Shown here: positions 4,293 to 23,335 of the stretch, piece after piece
Position numbering within the stretch: the first letter of the stretch is position 1
Layout of the letters: the number at the start of each line of letters is the position of its first letter
Position numbers and translations under genes: made by a program
The notes under the pieces: generated by a model
What the model was told of the DNA's origin: nothing
What the model saw: only the letters and a program-made list of their open reading frames with translations
The model's database searches: none
Origin: Nanobdellota archaeon
Lineage (GTDB): Archaea > Nanobdellota > Nanobdellia > Woesearchaeales > JACJVW01
Length of the DNA: 47,238 nucleotides
Direction of reading: 5' to 3'
Assembly: GCA_051819765.1 (NCBI GenBank)
Contig: JBNJGT010000003.1
Coordinates: 1 to 47,238, forward strand

Positions 4293-4296
4293 TAGA

Positions 4297-5140: not shown

Positions 5141-6784
5141 CTACAACATACCTGGGATGTGAGGCACAAAGACTTCATTATACACATCTTTCTTTTTGTA
5201 CCCTGCCTCAAGATCAATCCCCAGTCTTTGCGCAGCGTCCAAGATTGCGACAGTTAGCGTGCCACTCTCCAGATAGCTTGGCAAATTTTTTAGGCCGGTA
5301 TACCCTTTTATGTCCGCATCAATAGCCGGTTTGCGATCCATTGCAGCAAGCATCAGCTCCTCGACTGCATTATCATAAATCTTTAGACGAGAACCCCGTT
5401 CTATCATAATACCCGTATCACCGACCTCATAAGTCTCCTTTATCATATCATCCTTATAAGGGGAATTCCTGGAATACCAGGAACCCTCAAATACCTCGAC
5501 AAAGGGATATGCGGCAATGGATGCTCCAGTCTCCCAATAGATCATAAAAGCCTGCAGATTGTCTCGAATCCCTGCAATATCGATATGCGGTGTACCCAGA
5601 ATGACATTTATCCAGGGTTCCAGTTCAGCTTCCAATGTCGCATCAAGTGTGTCAACAATCGTATCTACTGAAACCTTCTTATTGAGACTTTTTAGTCCTG
5701 TATCAGAAAAGCTCTCAACACCATACGCAATTGATGCAAAACCGCCCGCATGCAGAATATCCAAAAGATTCACATCCTCAAATTTCTTCTTACGCAATTC
5801 TTCAGGTAGTCGATGCGAGTACAATTCTTCCTGGGATATAAGAGAGGACAAATCAGGCGGGATATTATCAACCCGTGTTGCAGCAAGCATCGAGACATCC
5901 AGATCACGGTCCATAAACTTCAGAGAAAGTCCAGCCCCTCTCCGTTGCAACGGTTTGCCGAGCAAAAAATTATCTCCATTAAAATAGATCGTATCAATAG
6001 GTGGCAACTCTCCCACAACCCTATCAATCAATTCCACCAGATCATCTGATGGCAGATAATGAACTTTAGGTGTGCGGCCCGTAAACTCCTCATAGAAATT
6101 TGTTGACACACAAAAGGAACATTTTCCCAGGCAAGCGTTCACATCAACCAGCGAGACAATGACTTTACCAATTGCATCCCTATATTCTTCATAAGGGATT
6201 CTGTCATATTCGATTCCCATTCGAGCACGTCTAAAATCATCCTTATCCAATTGAGTGCCATATCCGGTCCAGTGATAAGAGCCATCTCCATTCATGAGAT
6301 ACAAAGACGGGATATTTTGAACAGCCTCCATAAGCCGCTTACCGGTCAACCTTCCCTCACGCTGTTTGACTGTATCAGCCTTATGCATAATCGCAGATAG
6401 TACATGCTCGCCCTCACCCATAACACCAATCTCAGCACGTGAACCCTGTGCCACGGGCTTCCTGTTGAACGTAGCTTCTTGGCCTCCAAAAAGAATAGGT
6501 ATCTCTGGATGCCTTCTCTTAATTTGATGGCTTAAGAAAAGGTCATGGGGGATAGTAGCGTGAAGTGAAGAGATACCGACCATATCATACTTTTTCCGAT
6601 CAAGCTCCCGCAAGACATATTCATCCGCAGAAATATTGTCCTTGAATCCGCCCAGATTGCCATCTATGACATCCGCTTCATGACCCTCTGAGCGCACCCA
6701 TGAAGCAAGACTATGCAACCCTAGTGAGGGACCATATCGTTCTCCATCCTTATCTATCCCTTGAATCAAAGCTATCTTACTCAT
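5141..6784 (-). CDS. Cobalamin-binding radical SAM protein
   Basis: N-terminal B12-binding domain (PSLGLHSLAS, DMVGIS, FGGQEAT, GEGE); CLGKCSFC = CxxxCxxC; YGVESFS..LKSLNK. Confidence 0.92.
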   Translation of the reverse strand: MSKIALIQGIDKDGERYGPSLGLHSLASWVRSEGHEADVIDGNLGGFKDNISADEYVLRELDRKKYDMVGISSLHATIPHDLFLSHQIKRRHPEIPILFGGQEATFNRKPVAQGSRAEIGVMGEGEHVLSAIMHKADTVKQREGRLTGKRLMEAVQNIPSLYLMNGDGSYHWTGYGTQLDKDDFRRARMGIEYDRIPYEEYRDAIGKVIVSLVDVNACLGKCSFCVSTNFYEEFTGRTPKVHYLPSDDLVELIDRVVGELPPIDTIYFNGDNFLLGKPLQRRGAGLSLKFMDRDLDVSMLAATRVDNIPPDLSSLISQEELYSHRLPEELRKKKFEDVNLLDILHAGGFASIAYGVESFSDTGLKSLNKKVSVDTIVDTLDATLEAELEPWINVILGTPHIDIAGIRDNLQAFMIYWETGASIAAYPFVEVFEGSWYSRNSPYKDDMIKETYEVGDTGIMIERGSRLKIYDNAVEELMLAAMDRKPAIDADIKGYTGLKNLPSYLESGTLTVAILDAAQRLGIDLEAGYKKKDVYNEVFVPHIPGML

Positions 6785-7458
6785 AACGCATCACGTAACA
6801 TATATGGGTCACCATATCCCATCTCTATCCAGTTCTCAATAAAATCCTGGTTAAATCCATGGAGCTGACAAAGCATTTCAGCTTTGATTGATTCTCCCTC
6901 ATATGCATCAAACCAGTCACTCAACACAGTAGTAGGCACAAGTTCCGATGCACTCATCAGATAATTCCGCAGGTCCCTTGCAGCATTTGAAATGAATGAA
7001 ATATTATCTGGAGCTTTGGTACCAAAATCAAACCACCTGATTGATTCACCAACCAATACATTACCACTGTGAGCATCACCATGATACTCCCCTAAACGAT
7101 GCAGCCTGTTTAATGCCAAAAAACCTGCGTAGAGAGTATCCTCAGTTTCCGGAACTTCGCCATCATAGGCTTTAGTGACCACGACTCCAGTCATATCCGT
7201 ACGGACCGGTTCAACAACATCCAACTGCTTATCAAAAAGACGAATCAGTTTGTTCTGCTCAAAATCATGACGATCTTCCGCATCCATGGGTTCAGTACAC
7301 GCTCCAAAGCACAAATGCTCAAAGGGAGCCTGAGCCTCGAATCGACTTCCATATTTCACATACAAGCCATCAAGCACGTACACATTAGAGACAAACCCCA
7401 CATTACGGTTGGCCTGTTTCAATCTATCCTGCAACTCTTTCCCCGGAATAAAACCCAT
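6781..7458 (-). CDS. Protein-kinase-like fold phosphotransferase (Kdo/Bud32/APH-like)
   Basis: LHRLGEYHGDAHSGNVLV..WFDFG catalytic loop and DFG; ATGA overlap with the radical SAM gene; ATG 7458 is 30 nt from a minus-strand TTTATATA (7488-7481). Confidence 0.8.
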   Translation of the reverse strand: MGFIPGKELQDRLKQANRNVGFVSNVYVLDGLYVKYGSRFEAQAPFEHLCFGACTEPMDAEDRHDFEQNKLIRLFDKQLDVVEPVRTDMTGVVVTKAYDGEVPETEDTLYAGFLALNRLHRLGEYHGDAHSGNVLVGESIRWFDFGTKAPDNISFISNAARDLRNYLMSASELVPTTVLSDWFDAYEGESIKAEMLCQLHGFNQDFIENWIEMGYGDPYMLRDAL

Positions 7459-7571
7459 AACCACTAGGAAGTAGAGGCAATATATAAATATTTGGAACTG
7501 TCCCGGAAAAATATTACTTGATAGTAGTTAAAAACAAAAAGAATAAAAAGCAAAAAGCAACCCTCTCAAAC

Positions 7572-8369
7572 ATGCACTTCTCAGTCTTCGATAAAGAACA
7601 GATTCCCCTCTTTGAAAGAATAGCCAAATGGGCAAAGAAAGAATTCAGAGCGGAGCCAGAAGCCATTATCTATCGGGGATCCAGAACATGTACACAGGAT
7701 AAAGACACAGATCTTGATGCATTGCTTATTTATTCAGACATAGAAAAACGTGATGAGCTCTATGAGGTTGGAGGATATCAGGTAGATATTAGTCTCATGT
7801 CTCCACAAGAGCTTCACAAGAGGATTACCAACATACATGATGACTCAATCGAGCGAACTTCCATGATGGCCCTATCTCACATTGTATGGGAAGGGGTAGT
7901 GGATACACACATAAACGCGATGTACCACACAATCATGAAAGATTTTCAAAGGTTCATATACGCTTCAATAAAAGATGATCCAGTGACATACGATTTGGAA
8001 GATGTACTCCTCTACCCTTTGATGCTGGATCTATACAGGTTGCCAACAATACAGGAACCTGCCCGACGCTTCTTAGAATCCCCGTATCTTGAAAGCAACC
8101 TGAAACAAAATGAAGATTCATTCAAGCGATACATCCAAGGACAGAGGTTCCAGCATGACTATGAGGATGACAACCAATTGCAACCAGTACCACCAATACG
8201 GCAATCTCCGCTCCGCAATTTCCCCCATGAATATTCGCTTGGCATGACACACCTGCCCAGAAACGAAGGAATCACCCAAACCGACCCATACAAAAAAATG
8301 CTTTCCCATTTTATGGAGACCAAAGACGGATACAAATTCATTCCCCGAGTAAAGGAGCTGTTAGAATGA
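7572..8369 (+). CDS. Pol-beta superfamily nucleotidyltransferase-domain protein
   Basis: IIYRGSR..DTDLDALLIY (hG[GS]..DxD) and a later YQVDIS acidic strand; first ATG at 7572 (ORF track starts at TTG 7518). Confidence 0.7.
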   Translation: MHFSVFDKEQIPLFERIAKWAKKEFRAEPEAIIYRGSRTCTQDKDTDLDALLIYSDIEKRDELYEVGGYQVDISLMSPQELHKRITNIHDDSIERTSMMALSHIVWEGVVDTHINAMYHTIMKDFQRFIYASIKDDPVTYDLEDVLLYPLMLDLYRLPTIQEPARRFLESPYLESNLKQNEDSFKRYIQGQRFQHDYEDDNQLQPVPPIRQSPLRNFPHEYSLGMTHLPRNEGITQTDPYKKMLSHFMETKDGYKFIPRVKELLE

Positions 8370-9388
8370 AAATAATCTCAATGTATGGAAAAAAACAGGG
8401 AACAGGTGGCATCGAAAGTCTTCTGAGCAATCAGAAAGGATTTGAGATACAGGACATCTGGACTAATGAGCCAGATCCTGAATCCGATGAGGCAGCAGAA
8501 GATATCTTCAACCAGTTTTATGCCGCATTACCAGCTGATCTTCTCCACATTCACTCACCCAATATTTATGCGGGGTATGTTGCAGCCATGGTTGCCAAGG
8601 AAGAAGGGATACCCTCCATCGCAACATTCCATTATGGCGGATACACCAATTGGCCGCATCTACAAGAAAGGGAAGAGATGATGCAGGATACATTCAATAT
8701 AGTAGATCATATAATATGCGTCAGCAAAGCCAGTCAAGAGGCCATAGAAAAGGAGAATTCATCCGTTATCTATAATGGGATAGAACCATCTCAGTTCTAC
8801 CCAATGGAAAAAAACAGGGACCAAGGGAATGATCTGAGAATCATCTATCCTGCAAAGATATGTCATAGCAAAGGCCAAAAGGATCTCGTCTATATTGGAC
8901 AAAAGCTTCTACAGGAAGGAGTTCCCTTTGAGATTAATCTTGTGGGAAAAAATGCAGACCCGCGGTATCGGTATGACTTGGAGACTGACATAAAAGAAAA
9001 AGAGCTTAGCGATTATATCCACATACACAAGCCGGTCCCATTAGACAAGATGAACGAATTGTACAACAAACACAATCTCCTAATCTTCCCCAGCAAAATG
9101 GAGGGATTAGGGTTGATATCACTTGAAGCACAAGCTGTTGGGATCCCGGTGGTACTGTATGATTCAGGTGGTATGAAAGAGACAATAATTGAGAATGAAA
9201 CAGGCTTCAGTGTAGAGTATAATGATACCTATGCTTTATTTGAGCGATCAATGCAACTTTACCATGATCCGAATCTCAGAAGAGAGATGGGGCGGAGAGG
9301 AATAATAAACGTCAAGGAAAACTTCACAATCGAACAAATGCTACACCAACAAAAGACTCTTTATGAAAGAATGATTAAAGGGCATTAA
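8366..9388 (+). CDS. Glycosyltransferase family 4 (GT-B)
   Basis: GGIE, HIICVSKA, VIYNGIE, KGQKDL, FPSKMEGLGLISLEAQAVGIPVV; ATGA overlap with the upstream gene. Confidence 0.93.
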   Translation: MKIISMYGKKQGTGGIESLLSNQKGFEIQDIWTNEPDPESDEAAEDIFNQFYAALPADLLHIHSPNIYAGYVAAMVAKEEGIPSIATFHYGGYTNWPHLQEREEMMQDTFNIVDHIICVSKASQEAIEKENSSVIYNGIEPSQFYPMEKNRDQGNDLRIIYPAKICHSKGQKDLVYIGQKLLQEGVPFEINLVGKNADPRYRYDLETDIKEKELSDYIHIHKPVPLDKMNELYNKHNLLIFPSKMEGLGLISLEAQAVGIPVVLYDSGGMKETIIENETGFSVEYNDTYALFERSMQLYHDPNLRREMGRRGIINVKENFTIEQMLHQQKTLYERMIKGH

Positions 9389-9420
9389 ATCAATTGCTCT
9401 ACAAACAACACAATCAAACC

Positions 9421-10122
9421 CTATTTCATAACATACTTTGGATCAGTATACACGTATCTGACTGATAACTCATCCGTTCCAAGGGTATCAAGCAACCTTT
9501 TTCCATGATCAAGTAGTTTGAATCCCTTATACACATTTTCCAAGCGCAGGACATTACCACCCTCGTGATCACAAAGAAGGATTTGAGTTCCCGCAATACG
9601 CTCTTTACCTGCTTGTGACCCATAATTGAAATGCTTCTTCTCCTCAAGTTGCGTGTCGCCGGCTCTAACTTCAAGCAGTCTGACTATCCCCTCAAGGTCA
9701 TCTAGCTGGTCCCGAGTTATTGTTACTTGTTTTTCCAAAGGATTCTCATCAATTGTTTTGAATCCACTATACGCAGCCTCATAATAGTCTCCTGGCTTCA
9801 TAGGAGGAGTGATATCCCAGACATACCCCCTATATACTGATCGTTTCGTCTCATGAACTTCCCCATCCTCATACTCATCAAATCGATATGCCGTGCCCAG
9901 ATAGCTCGCACGTGAGAAATGTTCATTAGTATAATCCACATCATTGTGAGTGATTTGATTCAAATCTACAATCGCCGGAAACCGCAAACGCTGCAATTCT
10001 CCTTCATTCATATAATTTGGATCCTCGCGAACTTTTTTCAATGCAGTCAGAGCACCTGAAGATTTCTTTATCTTCTTTCGTTTCCGGCGTCCAAATTTTG
10101 ATTTGAAATCATCCTTTGCCAT
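9421..10122 (-). CDS. Hypothetical protein with basic N-terminus
   Basis: Open frame of about 233 aa; ATG 10122 is 30 nt from a minus-strand TTTTTAAA; no family recognised. Confidence 0.7.
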   Translation of the reverse strand: MAKDDFKSKFGRRKRKKIKKSSGALTALKKVREDPNYMNEGELQRLRFPAIVDLNQITHNDVDYTNEHFSRASYLGTAYRFDEYEDGEVHETKRSVYRGYVWDITPPMKPGDYYEAAYSGFKTIDENPLEKQVTITRDQLDDLEGIVRLLEVRAGDTQLEEKKHFNYGSQAGKERIAGTQILLCDHEGGNVLRLENVYKGFKLLDHGKRLLDTLGTDELSVRYVYTDPKYVMK

Positions 10123-10226
10123 CTTAGAGAGGAACAACTAATGGTTTAAAAACATTTTGGAATGTTACTACTATAAAGTTTAATAAACTGATAAGATATT
10201 TAAATGCCAGCAACCTCCAAACAGAT

Positions 10227-12215
10227 ATGCTGGAATATCTCATAGGGTTAAGTGGAGTGGCCATGGACACAATTGACTATTCAATAAAATTTACCCTAGC
10301 AAGCAAGAACAAACCCAAAGAAAAAGAATATCCGGATTTATGGAAATCACTAGACGGCAAAATTGCATTCCTGGTGAATTTGTACGCCCCTGATGAGGAT
10401 AAGCTTGAAGAGCTGTCCTATTTACAAGAAAGAGAGAACTATAAGACATACCTTCCCTGGGTGCATCTTGCACTCAATAATGGAACAAAAAGTGACAAAG
10501 CACAGGTTCTCGAGCAAAACCCAAGGATCGGAGGAGTATACCTCTTTGGCCTGGGAAACGACAAGGCAGCAAACCTTGCCCACATCACCCAGCTACTCCC
10601 GGAATCAATCGACACAGTCGTCATAAAGGACTATTACAGCAAGATCAAGGACTTCTCGACCTTCCTCAAAGCAGTGTATGATTTCAGGGAGAGCGACGCT
10701 GCAGCCCTTGCAGTACCCATCGTTCCCAACAATGATCCGAACTGGTGCCAGAATCGCCTCCTTACAAGACTACAGGAACACGAGTATGACCTTGCCATGA
10801 ACCTCGGCCGCAGGGCACTAGGGTTATTGGGAGCCTCAACAGTCAGCGGTGCCTGCTCAGCATTCAAACGCAAAGCCTTAGAAGACTTGATTAAGCAGAA
10901 CAGCTATGACTGGATCGGTGAAGATTTCGAGAACTCAGTGCTAACCATCGGAAAAGGAAAAAAGATCTACTTCGATCCACGACCACAAGTGGTGACCACA
11001 CACTCACCCAGCAGCTACAAGCGGCTCTATCTTCAGCGAAGAGGCTGGGAACGTGCCCGCCTGAAAGTCACCAATGACAATCTGTTTACACCACTCAAGG
11101 GCCTCTGGAAGGATTTCAAGGAGAATAATACCTACAAGACACTTGCAAAAGGCCTCTCAAAAGAGAACCTCACGAATCGTGGAAAAACCGTGGGAAAAGA
11201 TGCAGCCTTTAGCTATCAATTCTATATCCAAAACTGCCTCTTTGAGACCCTCGGTATGATACCAAAAGCCTACAGTATCCCGATCATCGGTCTTGCCGCG
11301 GCAAACTTCATCGAGACAAACCTGGGCTCAAACATACTGCCCGAAACCATAAAACTCTTTCCCACCGACATCGAAGTCTCAACCAGCGCAAAGGCCTTCA
11401 AAGTATATGCGACAGGACTGGCCGCCTGGTCAGGACTCAATCTCTTTCACCTCAGCCAGAGCGATCTGCCGCACAAGAGAAAACGGATCAAGGCTGCAGC
11501 ATTATTTCCCGTGTACAAACTGGGCCTTCTAGGCCCAAGCTTTGCAGGAGCGACAAGATTCACAAAAGAATTCTATCGTATGAACATCAAAGGTGACAAG
11601 AGTGTCAACCGGTTCGAGGAATGCGCAGGATCACTTCCCATACAGATCAGATATGACGCAAACAAGACTACAGAGCTCTCCGCTGAACTGAACAGGTTCT
11701 CCGGTGACAAGCAATACTTCAACAACATCTTCTACAAGACAGATTACCACGACATCATGGTTGCAAAGCTTGACCCGGCATTCCAAAAAGCATTCAACCT
11801 GCCAGAGGCAGAATACCATGCCGCCGCAAACCTGATTAACAAGGAATTAAGCATCTATACACTCGAGGAATTCACAAGACTATTGGCACCCCAACTGTCA
11901 GTCGAAGATATCGAACTAAAACCGCAGAAATCAATCACCCAGGAAGGATGGCTTCAGAACAAGAAGAGAGCAGTCCACACACTCTACACAATCAACACCC
12001 AGGACAGGGCACAAGTATTCTACTCACAGCACAAGCGCAAGCACAAATTCACCTACCTGGGCAACACAACCCCTGCCCCACTCGAACCCCACTCATTTGA
12101 GCTGGATCTGTTATACGATGAAGATGACAATAGGTTTACCTGGTACAAGGATGAAGAAGAAATAATATCCGGTGATATCAACATTGAAGAGATATCACCA
12201 GAACCATATGCCTAA
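10227..12215 (+). CDS. Processive-type GT2 membrane glycosyltransferase (PgaC/hyaluronan/chitin synthase-like) with C-terminal extension
   Basis: KAANL, LQEHEY, SGACSAFKRKAL, GEDFE, LYLQRRGW (QxxRW-like), followed by hydrophobic segments. Confidence 0.82.
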   Translation: MLEYLIGLSGVAMDTIDYSIKFTLASKNKPKEKEYPDLWKSLDGKIAFLVNLYAPDEDKLEELSYLQERENYKTYLPWVHLALNNGTKSDKAQVLEQNPRIGGVYLFGLGNDKAANLAHITQLLPESIDTVVIKDYYSKIKDFSTFLKAVYDFRESDAAALAVPIVPNNDPNWCQNRLLTRLQEHEYDLAMNLGRRALGLLGASTVSGACSAFKRKALEDLIKQNSYDWIGEDFENSVLTIGKGKKIYFDPRPQVVTTHSPSSYKRLYLQRRGWERARLKVTNDNLFTPLKGLWKDFKENNTYKTLAKGLSKENLTNRGKTVGKDAAFSYQFYIQNCLFETLGMIPKAYSIPIIGLAAANFIETNLGSNILPETIKLFPTDIEVSTSAKAFKVYATGLAAWSGLNLFHLSQSDLPHKRKRIKAAALFPVYKLGLLGPSFAGATRFTKEFYRMNIKGDKSVNRFEECAGSLPIQIRYDANKTTELSAELNRFSGDKQYFNNIFYKTDYHDIMVAKLDPAFQKAFNLPEAEYHAAANLINKELSIYTLEEFTRLLAPQLSVEDIELKPQKSITQEGWLQNKKRAVHTLYTINTQDRAQVFYSQHKRKHKFTYLGNTTPAPLEPHSFELDLLYDEDDNRFTWYKDEEEIISGDINIEEISPEPYA

Positions 12216-13198
12216 CTGATGATCAAAGGCCGATAGACAGTCCGGTGTTTCTCAGCTGACCAGATATCAAGTCGCACACCATATTCACCTGCAGGGGCAT
12301 CCTGTGGGATCTCAAGCAAAAAGACATACGACTCTTTGTCTCCTGAATCAAAGTCACTCAGTCTTCTTTTCGGCGCAATCACACTCAACTCGGGGATTGA
12401 GACCCTGACAGTCGCTTCTTCATAATCAAAATCTCCCGTGTTTTCAAAAGCGACCCGCATATTGACAACGGTTCCCGCTTCAACTGGTTCAAGCTCTCCA
12501 CCAAGTGTGTTGAAATGTGGGACACCGATATTATCTTGGGTAGACTCCTCTTCCACATCTGCACCATCAAGGGCATAAGTACACGGCCAATTATACCGGT
12601 TGTAGACCACGTTGGTTGTATTAGGGATAGTGAAGCTGTAATTGTAGCAACCCTCGCCAACGACTTCCAAGTCGTCATCATAACTGAAGTTATTGTCCCC
12701 ATTCTGGTCGTACCTACATAAGTCGATGACTCCGTCACCATCAGTGTCATTATACCATTCATCGAAACTCTCATTGTTTGGATTTGGGACCAGATAACTG
12801 TAATCACTATCAACATAGATTGCCTCAAAGACACCATCAAAATCCATATCATAAGTATACACATCAGCAATCCCATCATCATTACTGTCGTAGTTCTTCC
12901 GATCATACAATCCGTCCTCGTTCAGGTCCGCATACCAATGATTCACAGTCTGTCGAGAATCAGGATACGTACGGGTGGTATATTCTGCATAGCAATTCCC
13001 GTCCAGATCATACTGGAAGTAATCAACGCGACCATCCTGGTCTACATCGTAATTCCATCGATCGAACTGTCGATCATCTGTTGTATCAGCATACCACGAA
13101 TCCGTGTTGCCGTCATTGTAAAGTCTGTCCTCATTCTGTTCATAGAGACCATAAACAGAAAGAGCCAGTACCACCAAAAGTATAAGCGCTTTCTTCAT
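12212..13198 (-). CDS. Secreted protein with DxDxDG Ca-binding-type repeats and a C-terminal Ig/CARDB-like domain
   Basis: MKKALILLVVLALSVYG signal; repeated WY.D.D.DG..D..YD.D.DG; VAFENTG..PQDAPAGEYGVRL; GGAGGA SD and ATGA overlap place the start at 13198. Confidence 0.8.
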   Translation of the reverse strand: MKKALILLVVLALSVYGLYEQNEDRLYNDGNTDSWYADTTDDRQFDRWNYDVDQDGRVDYFQYDLDGNCYAEYTTRTYPDSRQTVNHWYADLNEDGLYDRKNYDSNDDGIADVYTYDMDFDGVFEAIYVDSDYSYLVPNPNNESFDEWYNDTDGDGVIDLCRYDQNGDNNFSYDDDLEVVGEGCYNYSFTIPNTTNVVYNRYNWPCTYALDGADVEEESTQDNIGVPHFNTLGGELEPVEAGTVVNMRVAFENTGDFDYEEATVRVSIPELSVIAPKRRLSDFDSGDKESYVFLLEIPQDAPAGEYGVRLDIWSAEKHRTVYRPLIIS

Positions 13199-14373
13199 TG
13201 TGTCTTCCTCCATTGTTTGTATAAATCGCTTTGTTGGATAAAATCATCGGAACCTATTCCATGATACGCGACTGAAAATGAGACACCCGGCCGATCCAGC
13301 ACACCAAAAGCCTTTTGAAGTTCCCGATGACAATCATCGTAATCCTTACCAGGCACATTGAAACTGACTCGATCCCGGCTTTCCTTGTACGGGTACATCT
13401 CTTTGAATGCCTGTTGAGAGAAATCAGAGGTCTCAAACCCTGCAACAAGATGACAATCAGCATGGCTGGCATAGGCAAAGAATGGCTTGAGCCGATCGAT
13501 GATACCATCCTCCGGACCATGGATATCCCCCTCCGCAAAACTACGATAAGCAGTAACATCAATCCGATCCAGGATGTCCATCGCATGCTTGTAAAATTCC
13601 TTTTCCTTACCTTCAAACTCAAGCACCTGGTTCCACCAGGAATCAACAGTGAACGACACAATCAGATCCCGTTCACTGCCATAGGCATGATACTCCTTCA
13701 TCAACCCAAGCAATGCCCTGTTTTGCTCACGTGCCTCATCACCCTCTACATGGGAATAGAGCTCGGCATTGAAGATGATACCGCGCAACCCAGGGTCTCC
13801 ACTATTATTGAACTCAGCAATATCATCCATGATACGCTTACCGATATTCGGTTTATCCAGCACAGGATTTTTCGTCTGATCAAAATCAGTGGACACAGCC
13901 ACCATTCCCTCAAGACCAGTCGAATCAAGAAAATCACGAACCCTATCAGGGTGCTGGTTCAGGTATTCACTAGCGCGACAATAATCATTGTCATTCTTTG
14001 CAGGGTCCTTGTGTATAAAGCCAAGATAAAGCAGGTTCACATCCAAAAAATCATTGATACGGTTGAATTGGGAAAGATCATCCCGAAGTATTGTATCCTC
14101 AAGGTACCATGCCCACCTGGATGCATTGAAAGACACTTCATGTGATTCATACCCTTTCAATTCTCCTTCAGCTACAGACCGGCTCACATAAGATTCCACC
14201 TTGGTAGTATCAAGCCTTTGTTCGTTTCCGTTGCAAAAGGGGATGAATGGCAACGCCAAAAGGGCTGCTCCCACGAGATAATGTCCTGCCTTAGGCCGCT
14301 TGAACTGACCAAACCGATTCTTAAGACCCGCCATCCGGGGCTGTTTGTCCAGTTCAATATCTATATCAACCAT
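13195..14373 (-). CDS. Membrane-anchored glycoside-hydrolase-like (GH18-like TIM barrel) protein
   Basis: One TM segment (YLVGAALLALPFIPF); WAWY, VNLLYL, GIIFNAELY, SFTVDSWW, IDVTAYRSFAEG, LVAGFET, VAYH pattern. Fold is inferred. Confidence 0.6.
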   Translation of the reverse strand: MVDIDIELDKQPRMAGLKNRFGQFKRPKAGHYLVGAALLALPFIPFCNGNEQRLDTTKVESYVSRSVAEGELKGYESHEVSFNASRWAWYLEDTILRDDLSQFNRINDFLDVNLLYLGFIHKDPAKNDNDYCRASEYLNQHPDRVRDFLDSTGLEGMVAVSTDFDQTKNPVLDKPNIGKRIMDDIAEFNNSGDPGLRGIIFNAELYSHVEGDEAREQNRALLGLMKEYHAYGSERDLIVSFTVDSWWNQVLEFEGKEKEFYKHAMDILDRIDVTAYRSFAEGDIHGPEDGIIDRLKPFFAYASHADCHLVAGFETSDFSQQAFKEMYPYKESRDRVSFNVPGKDYDDCHRELQKAFGVLDRPGVSFSVAYHGIGSDDFIQQSDLYKQWRKTQ

Positions 14374-14375
14374 GG

Positions 14376-17276
14376 TTATCGTGGAAGGATACCAGCCTCA
14401 TTGCTGAGTTTCAGATAGGTCTGCCGCAAGGCATCTCTAGGAAGCTTGCCTACCTTGTGATAATTATGCTCAGGATCAGCTGCAGAATACAACATCTGGA
14501 CTTGATCAGCGACGATACTGCCAGGGACTGGCCCGTTACCATCACAGAACTCCCGTATCCCCTCGTAAAATTTGTAGGCGTTTGCGACAAGTGCATTCAC
14601 ATCCTCCTGCGGTTCGACGAGAAAAGACAAGTGTTTCGCGATATAACCCACATGCAACAAGGTCTCATCAGTGAGAGAGTCAGCCGCATCAAACAGATCT
14701 GTCCACGCGTTTGCTACCTTAGCTATGGAACGATAATTATACTGTTGACGTGGCGTATAGCGAGAGCTGTTCGGCTCAATACCAGGAATCTGGACCTCAA
14801 GATCAGGGATCTGTATCAGTTGGGATGTTATCTCCTGTACCGCGTCAAGCCCGATTCCATGAGAGTAAGCGCCATTGATGACATCCCCCGTCTTTCGCAC
14901 GTAAAGCAGCCGTGATTCGTTTCGCTCATCATTGCATTTCTTATTGAAGAATTCTAGAAAGTCCAATGCAGCAGTATAAGAGACAGCTCCATCCTCGATA
15001 GCTTCAATGTTACCAAACTCCGCCGCAGCCCTAAACAGCTTCTCAGCGTAGATACCAGCAATATCAAGTCCCTCATAGTAAGCATGCTCCGATGTGCCAA
15101 TCTTTGAGAGATCAACGGAATCAAAGGCATACTCGCTCAGATTCAATGCCTCAACACCCTGGAGTATATCGATTCTTGCTTCATCAGTGAGGTGTGGTGT
15201 CCGTGCCCGGTACTGCTGGATTGATTTCTCAAGTATGTTTGGGTTATCCTTGAACAACTGATTTGCTTCAGGTTTGAAAGCCTTGACTGCAGCAAGAATC
15301 GCATCCTCAGTCTCATAGAAATTTTCCTGCGGTGTTTTCATGATATCATTAGCAAGCTTTTCAGGTTGTAATATGCCAAGTTCAGGCTTGCCTTTGTACA
15401 CATGAGGCCGCCTCTCCATATCCACCTTTGTCTCCTGCCAGGATTCCATGACCGAATCCATACGTTCAAGCGTCTCATCCAGAGTAAGCCCCACGTTGTC
15501 CATGAATTGGACAATCTTTACCGCGGGCTTTACAAACACATTCGGAACCAGATCATACTTTTGGGATTCCAGAAAATTCTCCTGTGACATAGAATGCAGA
15601 ACCAGCCGATTGAACACCTGCTCATAGGAGTCAACCTGCCCGGGTTCCAGGGAATCCAACACAGACGCGACAGCACCAGCATACTTCTCAGGGTGCAGGT
15701 ACCCTTTCTCTGAAGGTGCAGTCTGTGCAATAAGTGCCATCGCATCAGCGATCTGGTCCAATGAATGCCCGTTCCTGCTTCCAGCCACAAGCATAAGATT
15801 CGCATTCTTCACATAATAAGCAAGCTTGTCCTTATCCGTTGCAAACTCTGCGAAATCCTCCAGAAACTCAAGGGAGTCTTTGAAGGAATAACCAGCAAGT
15901 TCTGCAGTGACTGTGAAATCAACTGCATTGTTGATCAATTCGTACGTGTAGCCCTGGATTCGTTCAAGAACGGGAAGCTGCTTGAGCTTGCTCTCGCTCG
16001 GATCAAAATCAGTGAATCCCCCTACCACCGGCAACCGTGACAGCGTCTTGAACGCCTTTCTGCACTGGGATTCCAGATCAGAATCAACTTGGAGGTCATT
16101 CATATCCGCAGTCTCATGCAGTTTATCTTTCCAGAAATTCGCCTCATTCAACGGCCTGTAACGCCCCTTGAACTGCAAGGCCTCAATATTCTCAGTGATG
16201 AACGGTACTGACATGATTGAATTATAAAAGGCAAGCGTATCAGGGGTCTTTGTGAGTTTTTTCTTGAAGACATGTTCTTGTACCATGCTTGCCTGATAGC
16301 CTTCAACAGGCATCTTGAGTGCAAGGCCAACCACAGTTTCAGGGGTGAGGTTATGGCCCTTTTCACGCAGAAAATTTCCTGCATCCTCCAAATCACTCTT
16401 CATCTCCTCGAAAGTCCAGCTGATATCCTTGCTTTCCTGTAAGGACTTCAGTCTACCATACAGCTCGCCCGCAAGCCGTGTGTAAGTGACCGGACTCTCA
16501 GCTTGCGGTACACTCTGCACCAGGATGTCAAGAACACTATTGTAATCATCATTCGCACCCCAACCGTCTGTATTGATGAGACCCTCACTATGCCGGAGTG
16601 CCTCCAGAAGTGTTTCCGGGTCATGGAACTTTTTATCCTCAGATATCTTCGAAAGATACGCAAGCCGTGTAAGCGTGGAATCCGGGTCGACCTTAGGGAA
16701 GTTGTCCACCAGGCTTGACGCAGGTTCCGAAAGTGCGCTGTACGTATCCTGCGTTCCACAGGCGTGCAGAAACCCTCGAGCGAGATCCAGCTTATCTCTC
16801 GGCCTATCCAGCACCAACTCCACAGATGAAGCCAAATCACCTACAGTCCACTTATGCTTACCATTGGGAGCAGGGGCCAGGATTTCATGATCGCTTACCA
16901 CCTCCGCAAGCGTCTGCAAGGTCACATCATGTTCATTGGCATAATCTATCAAACGACGCGTAACATCTGGTATCAGATTGTCATGCTCCAAAAAGTAACC
17001 CTTCGGAAACGTATGCACATTCAAGGCATCCGCTACATAAGCCATGAGCGTTATTTCAGTATCTCTGAATTCGGCGAACTCACCCTTATCATCCATGTAG
17101 GAATCATAATTTTCCTCAATGATCCGTTCGATCCGATTACGCTCCTGGCCGGTAACCCCAATGCTCTCTGTGATTTTTTCTGCGTTCGGTGAATACCAGA
17201 AAAAAGCCTGCGCCGGCTGTGTGGCAACTGTTGCAGCAAGTGCGGTACCAAGTAAAAGACTAGTAAATTTATTCAT
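14376..17276 (-). CDS. Large (966 aa) secreted, probably alpha-helical protein of unknown function
   Basis: Sec signal MNKFTSLLLGTALAATVATQPAQA; ATG 17276 overlaps the upstream stop; amphipathic helical patterns throughout. Confidence 0.8.
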   Translation of the reverse strand: MNKFTSLLLGTALAATVATQPAQAFFWYSPNAEKITESIGVTGQERNRIERIIEENYDSYMDDKGEFAEFRDTEITLMAYVADALNVHTFPKGYFLEHDNLIPDVTRRLIDYANEHDVTLQTLAEVVSDHEILAPAPNGKHKWTVGDLASSVELVLDRPRDKLDLARGFLHACGTQDTYSALSEPASSLVDNFPKVDPDSTLTRLAYLSKISEDKKFHDPETLLEALRHSEGLINTDGWGANDDYNSVLDILVQSVPQAESPVTYTRLAGELYGRLKSLQESKDISWTFEEMKSDLEDAGNFLREKGHNLTPETVVGLALKMPVEGYQASMVQEHVFKKKLTKTPDTLAFYNSIMSVPFITENIEALQFKGRYRPLNEANFWKDKLHETADMNDLQVDSDLESQCRKAFKTLSRLPVVGGFTDFDPSESKLKQLPVLERIQGYTYELINNAVDFTVTAELAGYSFKDSLEFLEDFAEFATDKDKLAYYVKNANLMLVAGSRNGHSLDQIADAMALIAQTAPSEKGYLHPEKYAGAVASVLDSLEPGQVDSYEQVFNRLVLHSMSQENFLESQKYDLVPNVFVKPAVKIVQFMDNVGLTLDETLERMDSVMESWQETKVDMERRPHVYKGKPELGILQPEKLANDIMKTPQENFYETEDAILAAVKAFKPEANQLFKDNPNILEKSIQQYRARTPHLTDEARIDILQGVEALNLSEYAFDSVDLSKIGTSEHAYYEGLDIAGIYAEKLFRAAAEFGNIEAIEDGAVSYTAALDFLEFFNKKCNDERNESRLLYVRKTGDVINGAYSHGIGLDAVQEITSQLIQIPDLEVQIPGIEPNSSRYTPRQQYNYRSIAKVANAWTDLFDAADSLTDETLLHVGYIAKHLSFLVEPQEDVNALVANAYKFYEGIREFCDGNGPVPGSIVADQVQMLYSAADPEHNYHKVGKLPRDALRQTYLKLSNEAGILPR

Positions 17277-18522
17277 TTCTATCCCTCTCAGTAACATCAA
17301 GTGTTCCAACTTTCAGTGGGACCTTATAATCCCACCCAAGACCAAAATAGAGACTATGCAGTGGATCCGCGTCAACATACGTATCACGTTGGAATCCAAG
17401 AATAAATTCAAGCTGGTTTTGATGATTGATTCCATTCTCATCAGCAAGACCGAGTTGTTCAGAGAAAAAAAAACCCTTTACCATGCCATCTGTGAGTGGC
17501 ACTCTGCCAAATAGTTTTCCGCCTCCTTCACTGTCGATACGCGCATCAAGCCCAAACAGATATCCCACATCCATCTTCTGGTATTCAGGCTCATGCAAGA
17601 TTTCCGGACGAAGGAAATAACTGGTGAGTGCAAGGGTGAGGATATCACGCTTGCCATAATCATCATCATATCCCAAGCCAAGGGAATTGAGAGTATTGAT
17701 TCCATTTACCTGCCCCCGTGGAAAATACTTGAACCAAGCCTCATTATGATCAGCATATCTTCCGAAGGCATGCATGTATTCAAGCCTGAGCATATCATCG
17801 AATCCGAAAGCCGTCCTAAGCGTAAGAGGATCATTCTCGATTTCCTGCAGTTCAGGAACATCATCAGGGTAATTAGGACTATTAAGGGAGAACTGCTTCT
17901 CTATACCAAGGCCGAACTGCAGGTACCTGATAAGTGTACCAAATTCAGGCTTATTGTAGGTAAGCCCATCATTACCGACCAGACCAATCTCCTCCCGATC
18001 AACAAATAGATTCGCAAAGAGGCCTGGTGTCAGAAAGAGGCTGGTCTCACGCACCGAATCATCACCATAATCCACACTACTACCAAGCATCATTAAATCA
18101 AGGCTCGGTTCAAGAGTATAGTATCGAAACACCTTTCCCCATTCTCCATCCAATTCCCTTTTATGGATTCCATCAACACCAACCTGGGCCTTTGTCAAAT
18201 CATACTCATGGTTCCCTGCAGAAGTATCAAGCTCAAATGATTCATAGCCGACTTCACCCGTTACATCGGCTTCAAAACTCTTATCCACAGATCGATAGAG
18301 TTTCCGGGTCGCCTTCGCCTCAACCCCTGTTTTCCCACCAACATGAGCCATCACATCAACCCCATACGTCGGCTCTTCGTAATGCCGGGACACCTGATAC
18401 TCTCGTTCAGGTATACGTGCCGACTCATCAACATTCATCGCATATGTATCTGCCCCGAACAGCACAGTGAGAGGCAAAATGATATGAGTACCTACAAATT
18501 TACTTAGTGACTGTTTGACCAA
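17269..18522 (-). CDS. Exported beta-strand-rich protein, outer-membrane beta-barrel-like
   Basis: TTG start with AGGAGG SD; N-terminal hydrophobic segment; many alternating-pattern strands (e.g. YLQFGLGIEKQF, YLFGLDARID, LYFGLGWDYKV). Confidence 0.6.
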   Translation of the reverse strand: MVKQSLSKFVGTHIILPLTVLFGADTYAMNVDESARIPEREYQVSRHYEEPTYGVDVMAHVGGKTGVEAKATRKLYRSVDKSFEADVTGEVGYESFELDTSAGNHEYDLTKAQVGVDGIHKRELDGEWGKVFRYYTLEPSLDLMMLGSSVDYGDDSVRETSLFLTPGLFANLFVDREEIGLVGNDGLTYNKPEFGTLIRYLQFGLGIEKQFSLNSPNYPDDVPELQEIENDPLTLRTAFGFDDMLRLEYMHAFGRYADHNEAWFKYFPRGQVNGINTLNSLGLGYDDDYGKRDILTLALTSYFLRPEILHEPEYQKMDVGYLFGLDARIDSEGGGKLFGRVPLTDGMVKGFFFSEQLGLADENGINHQNQLEFILGFQRDTYVDADPLHSLYFGLGWDYKVPLKVGTLDVTERDRNE

Positions 18523-18708
18523 GAATACCCCCTCCTTATGTATCCATCTTAAAGTAGTTAATGTTTTGGAGTAAGATTACTTTCAGATATATAAAAGTTT
18601 TCTAAAATATTCTAAAATACCCTTCAAAAACAAGGTCTCTCCCAAGTGACGAAACAGCCACAGAAACCTTTATAAAAAGCAATGCGTATAATATCTGATG
18701 GTGGAAAG

Positions 18709-19068
18709 ATGGCAAAAGTAATGGTTGTTGACGATTCAAAACTCATCAAACGGATGGTGCGTGACATTGCCGAAAAGCAACAATGCACTGTGACCGAAGC
18801 AAGCAATGCGGATGAGGCAGTCCGAAAATACAAGGATGAAAAACCTGACATGGTTTTCATGGATATCATGCTCGGGACAAAAAACGGTATCGAAGCACTC
18901 AAGGAGATCAGAGAATTCGACGAGAAAGCCATCGTGATAATCTGCACCTCAATCATAGGGCAAGAAGAGGTCATCGAAAAGGCTTACAAATTCGGGGCGA
19001 GCGAATATATAACCAAACCGTTCTCTGATGAAGAGATTGAGGATATCATCAAACGGTATAACGGCTAA
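18709..19068 (+). CDS. Single-domain CheY-like response regulator
   Basis: KVMVVDDS, PDMVFMDIML (phospho-acceptor Asp), IICTS, YITKPF; ATG 18709 follows a GGTGG SD-like sequence. Confidence 0.93.
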   Translation: MAKVMVVDDSKLIKRMVRDIAEKQQCTVTEASNADEAVRKYKDEKPDMVFMDIMLGTKNGIEALKEIREFDEKAIVIICTSIIGQEEVIEKAYKFGASEYITKPFSDEEIEDIIKRYNG

Positions 19069-19142
19069 TTTTTCGGATTTATTGAAAATCCATCATTCCC
19101 CGTATATGAAGACATATAAAATGCAAACCGCCCCTATGAGTC

Positions 19143-20468
19143 ATGCGCAAAAGCTTCGAAGAGATAATCACCCAATTTGAATTTGAAGAACTTTTGCTCC
19201 AGGCGTATACCAAATATGTCGACAGGAGTCAAACCCAGGGGTTTGAAAATACATTCCTTCTTGACAGCCTGATCCATCTTCAGGCGATCTCTGCCAAACC
19301 CCCCTATCCCAATCCACGCGAGATCCACCCCAATCACACACAGACCCATGATTACTGCACAGACGAAGTCGTGAATGGTTTGATGCGGGCCAGACTTGAT
19401 GCCAACCCACAAAAACCCCTTGTGGACCATGCTCTGGATATGCTTCGGGATACCCCTTCTGGAAAGTCACGCACAAAGCGTCCTCCTGAAACCTCATTTG
19501 AACAGATTGAGAACAATGACAAGCAAAAGAGAACTACTGCATTCATGGAAACGATAACAAGATACGAACAGGAAAGACCGGGTAATCTGATACAGGAACT
19601 GTACGAAAAGCAAGCCTACCTTGAAGCACTAGAACGCACACTTGAAACCAATGAGACCCACCTACTTGAGGATATCCTTACAAAGCTGGAGTCCCAACCC
19701 TCAAAGACACTGGATACACTACCTCCAAAAGCAAAGGAGCTCATGGCACATCGTTTCTATGAGAAGGGCAGTTACCAGTCTGCAGCTGAGCTCCTATCAA
19801 ATCTTGCACCCTCCCCCCAGCTTGTCGATTGCCACTATCAACTCGGAGACTATGCAAAAGCAATCCGATCCTTTGAACAACTGGAAAGCACTGATACCCT
19901 CAGCCTGGAAGCGGGCGCCTGCTCATACCTCGCTGACGGACATCTTGAGCAGGGCGCACGACTCCTGGAAGTGCTGGCACTCAAACGACAAAGTCCAGAG
20001 ATACACAGCCTGTTGGCTGACACATATCTGAAACTATCAGAATACCAGCAGGCACTCCACCACATCAACCAATGTGATGGCTCTCCCGAAAACCGCATGC
20101 TGCAGGCAAAGGTGCATCTCTATCAAAACCCGGCCGATAGCCACCTCATAGACGAAACGATCCAAACCCTCCCTGAGGAAATGAAACACTCATTCCTTAT
20201 GGAATGTGCAGAACTCTACCCAGCAAAAGAAGCAGTCCCTCTTCTTGAACAAGCAATTGAGATGCATCCGCAAAGGGACTGCTACCTGAAGCTTGCAGGC
20301 GCATATGAGCGCCTCCTCGACTTTCGGTCCGCATTCAATGCCTATGAACAGGCGCTAACCCTTGAGTCTGACAGACAGACCCTTCAGGATCAGATCAGGG
20401 TAGCCCGCCGCATCGGCGAATGGACAAAAGTCAAACGCAACAACGACATGATCCAGTATGAGTATTGA
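19143..20468 (+). CDS. Tetratricopeptide-repeat protein
   Basis: CHYQLGDYAKAIRSFEQ, LLADTYLKLSEYQQALHH, YLKLAGAYERLLDFRSAFNAYEQAL. Confidence 0.8.
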   Translation: MRKSFEEIITQFEFEELLLQAYTKYVDRSQTQGFENTFLLDSLIHLQAISAKPPYPNPREIHPNHTQTHDYCTDEVVNGLMRARLDANPQKPLVDHALDMLRDTPSGKSRTKRPPETSFEQIENNDKQKRTTAFMETITRYEQERPGNLIQELYEKQAYLEALERTLETNETHLLEDILTKLESQPSKTLDTLPPKAKELMAHRFYEKGSYQSAAELLSNLAPSPQLVDCHYQLGDYAKAIRSFEQLESTDTLSLEAGACSYLADGHLEQGARLLEVLALKRQSPEIHSLLADTYLKLSEYQQALHHINQCDGSPENRMLQAKVHLYQNPADSHLIDETIQTLPEEMKHSFLMECAELYPAKEAVPLLEQAIEMHPQRDCYLKLAGAYERLLDFRSAFNAYEQALTLESDRQTLQDQIRVARRIGEWTKVKRNNDMIQYEY

Positions 20469-20921
20469 CTCCGCAGTCTGGAAAAAAGCTGACAACAGAC
20501 ACAGCCTTCGAAGGTTCCCCGTATCCAAAATCCTAAAAGCCAATGCAAACTCATCCATGACCGTCTCTGAAATACGAAGCCCAAAAGAACCTCGCATGAA
20601 AAGGGGAGACAATACCCTAACGAGAACTGCAGCAACTGATACACATTTCCACAACCAATGCATGAGACAATAAGACTCATCATAATTTATTCAAACTATG
20701 GAACAAAGCCTGCGAAGAAACGCCAACCACAAGTATTCAGAAAAACTTCGAGGATATAGCTCCTCAGAAAGAGACCCATATAAGACAATCTACCTCAGAT
20801 GCGACATGCGATTCCCTGACAGATTCTCCAACCATAAGCAATGGGATTTCAATTCGACATTTACTAATAAGACCCACATATTCCAGAAATCTTTTTATAC
20901 GATTGACACAACATGAGTCCA

Positions 20922-21485
20922 ATGGACCTACCTGACAGGATCATAGTCAAACAAAAAGTCGAGGCATTTGAGGTGTTCACCGACTTTGAGACCACAAACC
21001 GTTATCAGATCGTTGACATGAACAACAATGAACTTTTCTATGCATTTGAGGAAGGCAACTTCTTTGCACGCAATATACTGGGAACCCGCAGACCACTTAC
21101 ACTCAAAGTCATTGACCCCCGAAAACAACAGGTTCTCTCAATCACAAGGGATTGGTTCCTCTTTAGGGCAGGTTACCGGGTCACAGGAGAGGCTGACGGC
21201 GCAATTGTCCAGAAACGCTGGATCTTAGGCGCTTCATTTGAGATTCTCAATAAAACCCCAATACTGAAATGTGTAAGCAGATTCCCCCACCTCTGGACAT
21301 TCAAGATCCTGGACCACGGCCAGGAGGTAGGCCGTATAACAAAGCGCTGGAGCGGCGCAAAGGAATTCTTCACAGACGCAGACAATTTCCTCGTCGACTT
21401 TGGTACGGTAAAGAAAGAATACCGCCCCATGGTGCTTGCAACCGCACTTGCGATCGACACCCGTGTCTTTGAAGGCAGGAAATAA
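20922..21485 (+). CDS. Phospholipid scramblase / LURP-one-related protein
   Basis: FTDFETTNRYQI, RRPLTL, VGRITKRWSGAKEFFTDADNFLVDF; ATG 20922 fits TATA spacing better than 20913. Confidence 0.85.
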   Translation: MDLPDRIIVKQKVEAFEVFTDFETTNRYQIVDMNNNELFYAFEEGNFFARNILGTRRPLTLKVIDPRKQQVLSITRDWFLFRAGYRVTGEADGAIVQKRWILGASFEILNKTPILKCVSRFPHLWTFKILDHGQEVGRITKRWSGAKEFFTDADNFLVDFGTVKKEYRPMVLATALAIDTRVFEGRK

Positions 21486-21581
21486 TCCCCACCAATTCTT
21501 CAGTTTACATGAGATGAGAACTCTCTGGATGAAAGACCGATCGTGATCGCCAGAGATTTTCCAGAAATAATAGAAAGCGTA

Positions 21582-23139: not shown

Positions 23140-23335
23140 TGAAGACACCTCTTCTATACCTATATTACCAACATGTCTTCTAGTATATAAATATTACTAT
23201 TTTGTATACTAATGTATTAATTACATATTCTTTTTCGCAATTACAGAAAAGTGACGACCACAGGCTCCCACAGTTACAACTTCAAGGTACTCCCTAAAAA
23301 TTTAAATAGCCCACCCCTCTCAATTCTTATAAACT

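Follow-up and report, generated by a model that had tools for sequence, protein, structure and literature searches.

Does an archaeon encode an apparatus comparable to the outer half of the bacterial exopolysaccharide systems Pel, Pga and Bcs, and if so, which synthase would supply it? The question is raised by contig JBNJGT010000003.1 of a Nanobdellota archaeon from the order Woesearchaeales (assembly GCA_051819765.1), whose 47,238 nucleotides (nt) we refer to as the window. Four genes for exported proteins form an operon there (12212-18522, minus strand), which converges with a gene for a glycosyltransferase family 2 (GT2)-like protein. A preliminary description had proposed these five genes as a candidate system of exopolysaccharide synthesis and export. 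We consider the barrel operon real and surprising, and its reading as an exopolysaccharide exporter plausible by analogy only. Tentatively, as a possibility that falls short of probable, we interpret the operon as a genus-specific envelope module of Woesearchaeota (DPANN), built around an exported barrel of about 16 strands and most likely handling a surface glycan.

The genome to which the window belongs, as contig G000:C3, measures 1.58 Mb in 97 contigs, with a completeness of 91.9% and a contamination of 0.82%. It encodes the archaeal/eukaryotic ribosomal protein S8e, and the closest homologues are labelled 'Candidatus Woesearchaeota archaeon' by their sources; by both of these sequence markers the source genome is archaeal.

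A tightly coupled operon for four exported proteins

As read from the open reading frame (ORF) list, the operon begins with the gene for a barrel protein of 417 amino acids (aa; 17269-18522, TTG start) and continues with genes for an orphan exported protein of 966 aa (14376-17276), a TIM-barrel-like protein of 392 aa (13195-14373) and, in last position, a protein of 333 aa with Ca-type loops and an immunoglobulin (Ig)-like domain (12212-13213), all on the minus strand. The length of the orphan protein corresponds to the ATG at 17276, its likely start; the TTG at 17309 given in the ORF list would yield 977 aa. The tight coupling originally proposed for the four genes holds: the stop of the barrel gene and the start of the 966-aa gene overlap and have ATGAATAA in common, 2 nt lie between the stop of the 966-aa gene and the start of the 392-aa gene, and the 392-aa gene extends 19 nt into the 333-aa gene. 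At the distal end, the stop codon TAA of the GT2-like gene (10227-12215, plus strand; 662 aa) at 12213-12215 and the minus-strand TAG of the 333-aa gene at 12212-12214 let the convergent ORFs overlap by 4 nt, such that ORFs and stop codons agree with the coordinates and the convergence with overlapping stops at 12212-12215 that had been reported before. The N-termini of all four operon products run from a positive into a hydrophobic stretch that is retained in the orthologues (by eye), in keeping with the export signals ascribed to each of them.

The predicted fold of the first operon product

The 417-aa protein, encoded by a single-copy gene, found no match in Pfam, NCBIfam, PADLOC or the sequences of the PDB. 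Among 1.84 billion representative proteins, a HMMER search returned five relatives, one from a congener (55% identity) and four of metagenomic origin (29-34%). The alignment used for structure prediction has seven rows, taken from the metagenomic and congener relatives together with one congener read from its locus; in it, the four remote homologues (P0004-P0007), which lie on contigs of 2.7-10.4 kb, are 25-32% identical. From this alignment, AlphaFold2 produced an all-beta model with a mean predicted local distance difference test (pLDDT) of 71.7 and a predicted template modelling score (pTM) of 0.69; pLDDT is at least 70 in 276 of the 417 residues, and all five models fall within 65-72. After a signal-peptide helix, the chain forms some 16 long strands in antiparallel order, as counted by eye from DSSP. 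Hydrophobic and polar residues alternate along the strands as they do in membrane barrels (by eye): in strand 52-62, Y53, V55, V57, A59 and V61 alternate with T52, G54, D56, M58 and H60, and the final strand bears L391, F393, L395, W397 and Y399.

Fold comparisons consistently led to one class of proteins. A Foldseek search of the PDB yielded 81 matches at E ≤ 1e-3, the rows listed being outer-membrane barrels. Compared with 48,161 representative chains by VIA-align, the model was closest to PelB (9h80_M; Z 17.2, root-mean-square deviation 4.0 Å, 269 residues aligned), followed by CdiB (16.8), CymA (16.2-16.3), OmpG (15.6), BcsC (15.4, a second chain 14.6), PgaA (14.9) and FhaC (14.8), with Wzi (11.8) and AlgE (11.7) at lower Z. 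A second pass over Foldseek's top 998 chains preserved this order; 476 of these chains reached a Z of at least 8, and the 50 rows listed were almost all outer-membrane barrels. A search of BFVD gave 4 weak matches only, to phage-borne porin or autotransporter barrels. On the strength of the model and its matches, the early description of the protein as beta-barrel-like stands, and its assignment to the outer-membrane-type barrels is well supported at the level of fold class. The comparison with exopolysaccharide porins is more ambiguous: BcsC, PgaA and AlgE were indeed matched, but unspecifically, and the porin of 16-18 strands that exopolysaccharide systems possess has its counterpart here at the level of fold only, with barrels from outside such systems matching equally well.

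Given seven aligned sequences, a mean pLDDT of this order and several bacterial-type genes in the window, the barrel might be an artefact, either a soluble beta-rich protein forced into this shape by the shallow alignment or the product of a contaminating bacterial contig. We regard this as extremely unlikely, as the five models agree, two thirds of the 417 residues are modelled at pLDDT ≥70 and almost half of the 998 chains reach a Z of 8 or more, while the locus sits beside FtsZ with the same neighbours in three genomes and a conserved TATA-like box, in an assembly of less than one percent contamination.

Membrane-spanning beta-barrels of outer-membrane type count as a hallmark of diderm bacteria and of the organelles descended from them. 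A literature search found no report of such a barrel in Woesearchaeota; the nearest mention found is a passing remark on a possible distant relative of PopA in Altiarchaeales (PMC12228718).

The partners of the barrel

The 966-aa protein has a signal peptide that ends AQA/FFWYSP and is conserved in the orthologues (by eye). Pfam, Atlas and PDB sequence searches returned no match for it, and among 5.8 billion proteins searched its sole relative is that of a congener, at 53% identity. A barrel gene directly followed by the gene of a large exported protein is reminiscent of two-partner secretion (TPS), and one could imagine that the barrel exports the 966-aa protein as TpsB does TpsA, leaving accessory roles to the other two products. 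The structural matches to CdiB and FhaC are among the best for the barrel, the two genes are translationally coupled, and the 966-aa protein combines large size with a signal peptide. However, the model leaves only about 25 residues between the signal peptide of the barrel and its first strand and therefore no room for POTRA domains, no Omp85 match was found in the genome, and the 966-aa protein showed no match of TPS or haemagglutinin type. We therefore judge such a pair to be very unlikely.

The 392-aa protein, previously called a membrane-anchored glycoside hydrolase (GH)-like enzyme, starts with a long hydrophobic anchor that ends in an invariant, lipobox-like Cys47. No Pfam or other sequence family covers the protein, a search of PDB sequences gave nothing meaningful, and its relatives, apart from the query, number two, both labelled Woesearchaeota and both in the genus. 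C47, E204, D244 and E314 are invariant in the orthologues. The AlphaFold2 model is of low confidence (pLDDT 47, pTM 0.51) and displays beta/alpha alternation over residues 114-278. With this model, VIA-align retrieved GH18 4wiw at Z 10.4, other GH18 structures at 8.2-9.6, GH114 (9.1), GH191 (9.0), Sph3 (9.0), PgaB 4f9d (8.6) and dispersin (8.2), and Foldseek retrieved GH84, GH18, GH20, the hydrolase domain of PelA and sugar-phosphate isomerases (E 3.5e-5 to 1e-3). Glycosidases with a TIM barrel make up most of these matches, among them PelA, PgaB and Sph3, which hydrolyse exopolysaccharides. An Atlas search was weak, with a GH18 cluster at rank 26 (score 0.88). TIM-barrel glycosidases carry their catalytic residues at strand ends, and in the low-confidence model E204, D244 and E314 are located at the ends of predicted strands. 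The catalytic motif of GH18 enzymes is DxxDxDxE; the strand ending at E204 reads GIIFNAE and lacks it (by eye, in the low-confidence model alignment). The body of the protein may thus be a glycosidase-like TIM barrel, but with marginal matches on such a model, the attribute 'GH-like' is a lead, not a result.

The acidic 333-aa protein is likewise exported, judging by eye from its N-terminus, and contains at least five Ca-type loops of the form Dx[DN]xDG (by eye), followed by an Ig-like (NEW3/CARDB-like) C-terminal domain. Its initial characterization as a Ca-binding/Ig protein is borne out in part, by the loops and by the recurrence of the C-terminal domain, but not by Pfam, where the match to NPCBM_assoc (PF10633) is sub-threshold at 17.3 bits against a cut-off of 24.4. 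Residues 246-313 match the NCBIfam entry 'putative S-layer protein' (E 2.9e-5), and a PDB sequence search gave nothing meaningful. Matches to the C-terminal domain occur in 182 of 301 genomes of the order, six of them unpublished (G134, G209, G207, G184, G211 and G245), in proteins of 128-2931 aa. Full-length matches are confined to the genus at 79-80% identity, making this the best conserved protein of the operon. Because the Ig-like domain is common to large surface-type proteins across the order, it would tie the operon to the archaeon's own cell surface.

The same domain, together with its match to a putative S-layer (surface-layer) protein, would also suit a barrel that serves as a structural porin, within a sheath of protein or a coat resembling an S-layer, and has no role in polymer export. 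OmpG, OmpF/C-type porins and OprP match the model nearly as well as exopolysaccharide porins do, and the toga of Thermotogae is described as containing arrays of beta-barrel trimers (bioRxiv 10.1101/2022.09.22.508938). A major coat protein, on the other hand, would be expected throughout the order, whereas the barrel was found in one genus only, and the depth of RNA-library contigs on its gene is low, although depth cannot rank genes. We attach a correspondingly small probability to this explanation.

The convergent GT2-like protein

The preliminary description assigned the synthesis of a polymer to the GT2-like protein, which it called processive. This protein is composed of a GT-A domain (residues 44-279), weakly hydrophobic segments (327-445, by eye) and a C-terminal domain (460-662). 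With 26.7 bits, its match to Glyco_trans_2_3 (PF13632) stays just under the Pfam cut-off of 27; its best NCBIfam matches, PgaC_IcaA (TIGR03937; E 3.9e-7, 29.4 bits against a cut-off of 422) and NodC, are both far below theirs. A PDB sequence search returned nothing meaningful. Full-length relatives exist in the genus only (64-65% identity), and weak matches confined to the GT-A domain were found in 19 other genomes among 401 of the order, a count that takes in one unpublished genome (G123). Four of the proteins concerned were scanned, and all are canonical GT2 synthases with a clear Pfam GT2 domain, three of them also matching Chitin_synth_2. When the GT2-like protein was aligned to canonical Woesearchaeal synthases by hhalign, the match comprised residues 44-279 with a probability of 97.9% (E 6e-13), from which homology of its GT-A domain to NodC/PgaC/chitin-synthase-like enzymes is clear at the sequence level.

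Processive synthases share the signature D, DxD, ED and QxxRW. In the GT2-like protein, the canonical positions are occupied by N85 for D, D135-Y-Y for DxD, the retained E232-D233, and Q270-R-R-G-W for QxxRW, where Q270 and W274 are kept and G273 replaces R; the three orthologues agree without exception in N84-N85-G, D135-Y-Y, E232-D233 and Q270-R-R-G-W. The full signature of membrane-embedded processive GT2 enzymes is hence incomplete, and Pfam indicated no PilZ or cyclic diguanylate (c-di-GMP) module. In canonical synthases, according to the literature on BcsA, the residues replaced here (by N85, D135-Y-Y and G273) contact nucleotide, metal and diphosphate. Because three signature residues are exchanged, the protein may use an unusual donor, or may be non-catalytic. 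By its sequence it is a motif-degenerate paralogue of NodC/PgaC-type synthases. The proposed 'processive-type GT2' holds in part, by its GT-A homology, while its motifs and its Pfam score fall short.

A canonical synthase of 422 aa is encoded elsewhere in the genome, on contig C66 (G000:C66, 4903-6171, minus strand), with the motifs NDGS, DAD, ED and QRIRW and strongly hydrophobic segments, and has orthologues in both congeners. Its gene adjoins those of two exported proteins of large size, each with a membrane anchor at the C-terminus (1101-2369 and 2379-4169). BLASTP aligned the C66 synthase and the GT2-like protein with an E of 0.34. Going by sequence, the C66 enzyme is the better candidate for a processive synthase.

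Distribution, synteny and the one-system model

All five genes are present at full length in only three genomes, which belong to one genus, and are collinear in both congeners. Our synteny comparison covers these three genomes. The profile of the barrel matches the genus only, in 3 of 61 relatives, 3 of 401 genomes of the order and 3 of 401 of the phylum, which leaves the other 398 genomes of the order without a match. Public genome contigs contained two loci with a barrel, at 55% and 53% identity; the record of one is titled 'uncultured Methanosarcinales archaeon' and that of the other Woesearchaeota, suggesting a discrepancy in binning or labelling (L030). Two metagenome scans turned up no relative, and searches of viral contigs, plasmids and phages returned nothing.

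Phyletic co-occurrence was considered as a test of linkage between the GT2-like gene and the operon and was rejected: the flanking genes for a 238-aa protein and a TPR (tetratricopeptide repeat) protein were likewise found in the genus only, and not in the one other genome of the family (75% complete). Moreover, the collinear block is wider than the five genes and spans everything between FtsZ and, on the opposite side, the GT4 and radical-SAM (S-adenosylmethionine) genes. Since the whole larger block is collinear and its flanking genes are genus-only, a unit of GT2 and operon cannot be told apart, by synteny or co-occurrence, from a neighbourhood peculiar to the genus. The synteny in relatives that the preliminary description had called for was thus found, but is uninformative.

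This leaves the model in which the GT2-like protein is the processive synthase of a single synthesis and export system with the four exported proteins. It can draw on the homology of the GT-A domain to NodC/PgaC/chitin-synthase-like enzymes, on the retention of E232-D233, Q270 and W274, on the adjacency with overlapping stops that both congeners conserve, and on the fact that barrel, TIM barrel and GT2 all point to polymer systems of the N-acetylglucosamine (GlcNAc) type. Yet the GT2-like gene lies on the opposite strand, unlike the synthase and export genes of a single operon, and with its separate promoter it is not co-transcribed with the four genes; three signature residues are replaced, and Pfam scores the domain just below its cut-off; the canonical synthase resides on another contig and is barely similar by BLASTP; the hydrophobic segments following the motif are weak (by eye), those of the C66 synthase strong; the flanking genes make co-occurrence uninformative; and weak GT-A matches occur in 19 other genomes of the order, the four scanned proteins among them being canonical synthases, while the barrel profile matched no genome of the order outside the genus. 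Considering all this, we deem the complete model unlikely. A functional link between the GT2-like protein and the operon finds no support beyond adjacency.

Upstream region, regulation and expression

The conserved region upstream of the operon (18528-18600, minus strand; aligned with two congeners) contains the TATA-box-like AAACTTTTATATATCTG at 18600-18584, and its leader ends in the Shine-Dalgarno-like AAGGAGGGGG at 18537-18528, 5 nt before the TTG start of the barrel gene. In the alignment, the two blocks are identical in all three genomes and the sequence around them is variable, and we infer an archaeal TATA-type promoter from AAACTTTTATATATCTG and a ribosome-binding site from AAGGAGGGGG. 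A scan of bacterial type, unsuited to archaea, returned 19 promoter-like sites (16.0 ± 3.7 expected) and 13 terminator-like sites (8.5 ± 3.5 expected), counts not clearly above chance.

The 620 nt that precede the barrel gene only appear to be a gap and contain the gene of a CheY-like receiver (18682-19068, plus strand), a single-domain protein (Response_reg, E 5.9e-27), which is divergent from the operon, as is the following gene for a TPR protein of 441 aa (19143-20468, plus strand; Pfam TPR families). Both genes are kept beside the operon in a congener, and the spacer that separates this pair from the operon has two conserved TATA-like boxes. Because the TPR protein lacks a hydrophobic segment at its N-terminus (by eye), it is probably cytoplasmic. 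Receiver and TPR protein could constitute a pair of regulators for the operon.

Fifteen sequencing runs are listed with part of the 31-mers of the operon, 12 of which are RNA, labelled as salt-lake metatranscriptomes from three studies. Four runs chosen by operon sequence (three RNA, one DNA) were mapped on 7500-21500, as contigs rather than reads. RNA-library contigs cover all four operon genes, mostly at 99% identity or more and otherwise at 95-99%, the longest extending over 741 nt (12138-12878); on the GT2-like gene, almost no cover was seen in these runs, selected as they were by operon sequence. Apparently, the operon is expressed in salt-lake communities. One contig of the DNA run joins 13603 to 14353 and skips 749 nt within the 392-aa gene; with 21 letters on one side, below the trust limit, the junction is too weak for a deletion variant.

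Other genes of the window

Rfam and tRNA scans of the window found nothing, and PADLOC gave no matches. At its start lie the gene for a fusion protein of 832 aa that joins an amino-acid permease to a SAM-methyltransferase domain and whose C-terminal third is unassigned (492-2990, plus strand) and genes for two more exported orphans (3024-5013, plus strand), one of 422 aa with a twin-arginine signal (TIGR01409; 3024-4292), the other of 238 aa. The 392-aa operon protein was considered as a paralogue of the twin-arginine-signal protein; the two showed no similarity. Upstream of the GT2-like gene (5141-9388) follow genes for a B12-binding radical-SAM protein, a 227-aa protein with a kinase-like motif HGDxHxxN (by eye), a 283-aa orphan and GT4 (8366-9388), an arrangement that is collinear in a congener. 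These genes may represent a separate glycosylation cluster that includes the GT2-like gene.

On the far side of the operon, FtsZ (22078-23148) is flanked by genes for a scramblase-family protein (20913-21485, plus strand) and a CheW-like protein (23336-23932, plus strand). A VanX-type D-Ala-D-Ala dipeptidase (Peptidase_M15), an Asp/Glu racemase and a beta-lactamase-fold protein are encoded at 25449-26692 and 45891-46973 (both plus strand), peptidoglycan-related functions that are here found in an archaeon. Finally, an alpha-glucan/trehalose cluster (35371-43351, minus strand) encodes a GH77 4-alpha-glucanotransferase, two alpha-amylase-family proteins and a GH57/DUF3536 protein.

Discussion

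If the operon specifies an envelope module, a path from the cytoplasm to the cell surface can be sketched. All four products would leave the cytoplasm via Sec, as their N-termini suggest. The TIM-barrel-like protein would remain attached, through its Cys47 anchor, to the external side of the cytoplasmic membrane, the barrel would be embedded in an outer layer of lipid or protein, the 966-aa protein might act as a bridge or scaffold, and the 333-aa protein, with a domain typical of Woesearchaeal surface proteins, would decorate the surface. The most likely cargo would be a glycan chain, trimmed by the TIM-barrel enzyme and passing through the barrel, the module working like the outer half of Pel, Pga or Bcs export; the position of the locus beside glycosyltransferase genes, GT4 and the GT2-like gene, speaks for the proposal. 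The polymer could come from either the GT2-like protein or the canonical C66 synthase. In this form, the analogous envelope system of the preliminary description retains its parallels in fold, to PelB, BcsC and PgaA for the barrel, to PelA, PgaB and Sph3 for the TIM barrel and to NodC and PgaC for the GT2-like protein, although each of them is unspecific.

A number of observations weigh against this proposal. In the barrel model, derived from 7 sequences, 92 of the 417 residues have a pLDDT below 50. PelB is tied with CdiB and CymA within one Z unit, with OmpG 1.6 Z lower, and owing to this tie a preference of the model for exopolysaccharide porins over other barrels is not supported. The Z of 8-10 obtained with the 392-aa model, itself at pLDDT 47, is near the background quoted for the tool, for which reason its likeness to glycosidases was called a lead above. 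The 966-aa protein has no TPR match at E ≤ 1 and no Sel1 match in Pfam, and no sequence family connects any of the four operon proteins to Pel, Pga, Bcs or Alg. The RNA-library contigs are no proof of transcription, as DNA may be present in the libraries, and cannot rank the genes. No outer membrane is known from this group of archaea. Lastly, Omp85/BamA (PF01103) was detected in none of the three genomes of the genus, while 7 diderm control genomes matched, which leaves insertion of the barrel unexplained.

The missing insertase could mean that the barrel is not inserted by the archaeon into its own envelope. DPANN archaea are mostly host-dependent, and the barrel might act in a device for host contact, as a metabolite-uptake pore placed in the membrane of a partner or in a shared junction, with the remaining proteins as adhesin and wall-clearing factors. 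The family is extremely narrow and evolves fast: a search of 1.84 billion proteins gave 5 matches, and members from the genus are 54-55% identical, a pattern typical of interaction genes, and the VanX-like dipeptidase, the racemase and the beta-lactamase-fold protein of the window act on components of the bacterial wall. Known pore-forming toxins, by contrast, build their barrels from several subunits, no single-chain barrel of 16 strands is known to insert spontaneously into foreign membranes, and no host is known. We find this alternative quite unlikely.

Under most readings, the envelope module included, the surprising element would be the same, a single-chain barrel of predicted outer-membrane type in an archaeon without BamA. 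That such a barrel, of one chain and 16 strands, is truly embedded in a membrane and is made in a DPANN archaeon without BamA/Omp85 is possible, but less likely than not. If so, then the genus would have either an unrecognised outer lipid layer with its own route of barrel insertion, or a barrel that is planted in the membrane of a partner cell, and this barrel would be at the heart of a previously undescribed archaeal apparatus for export or exchange across the envelope. A real barrel channel in a DPANN archaeon would bear on the building of envelopes, on exchange with hosts and on barrel insertion without the barrel assembly machinery (BAM).

Comparison with known systems

Should the glycan-export reading be true, the operon would represent the first archaeal counterpart of the outer export stage of Pel, Pga and Bcs. 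The structure closest to the 417-aa model, over model residues 36-403, is that of PelB (9h80), and both are single-chain barrels of the 16-strand type. Both loci also encode a partner resembling TIM-barrel hydrolases, PelA (5tsy) being matched by the 392-aa model in Foldseek with an E of 6.9e-4. However, PelB and the 417-aa barrel are 9% identical in sequence and are not connected by a sequence-profile match; PelB has a long TPR domain fused before its barrel, whereas the archaeal barrel directly follows the signal peptide; no PelC-like lipoprotein or PelDEFG was identified here; and the host is an archaeon in which no Omp85 was found.

PgaABCD resembles the locus at the level of folds and families, in its barrel (PgaA 4y25, Z 14.9), its TIM barrel (PgaB 4f9d, Z 8.6) and its GT2 enzyme (PgaC_IcaA), but differs in that the GT2-like protein scores 29.4 bits against the PgaC cut-off of 422 and is without three signature residues, that no deacetylase domain or PgaD was found here, and that the genes do not form one transcription unit. 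TpsB proteins share with the operon the barrel (CdiB, Z 16.8; FhaC, Z 14.8) and a large exported protein encoded directly downstream, but not the POTRA domains, which the 417-aa barrel lacks, nor a match to the Omp85 family. In the case of Bcs and Alg, the 966-aa partner has no TPR or Sel1 match and the GT2-like protein no PilZ or c-di-GMP module, while the barrel resembles BcsC (Z 15.4 and 14.6) and AlgE (11.7) and, as with AlgK and AlgE, a separate large partner is encoded beside it. NodC/chitin-synthase-like enzymes of Woesearchaeales, including that on C66, are about 410-420 aa long, compared to 662 aa for the GT2-like protein with its extra C-terminal domain of 200 aa and its weaker hydrophobic segments, and carry D, DxD and R where the latter has N85, D135-Y-Y and G273; common to both are a homologous GT-A domain, the ED motif, and Q and W of QxxRW.

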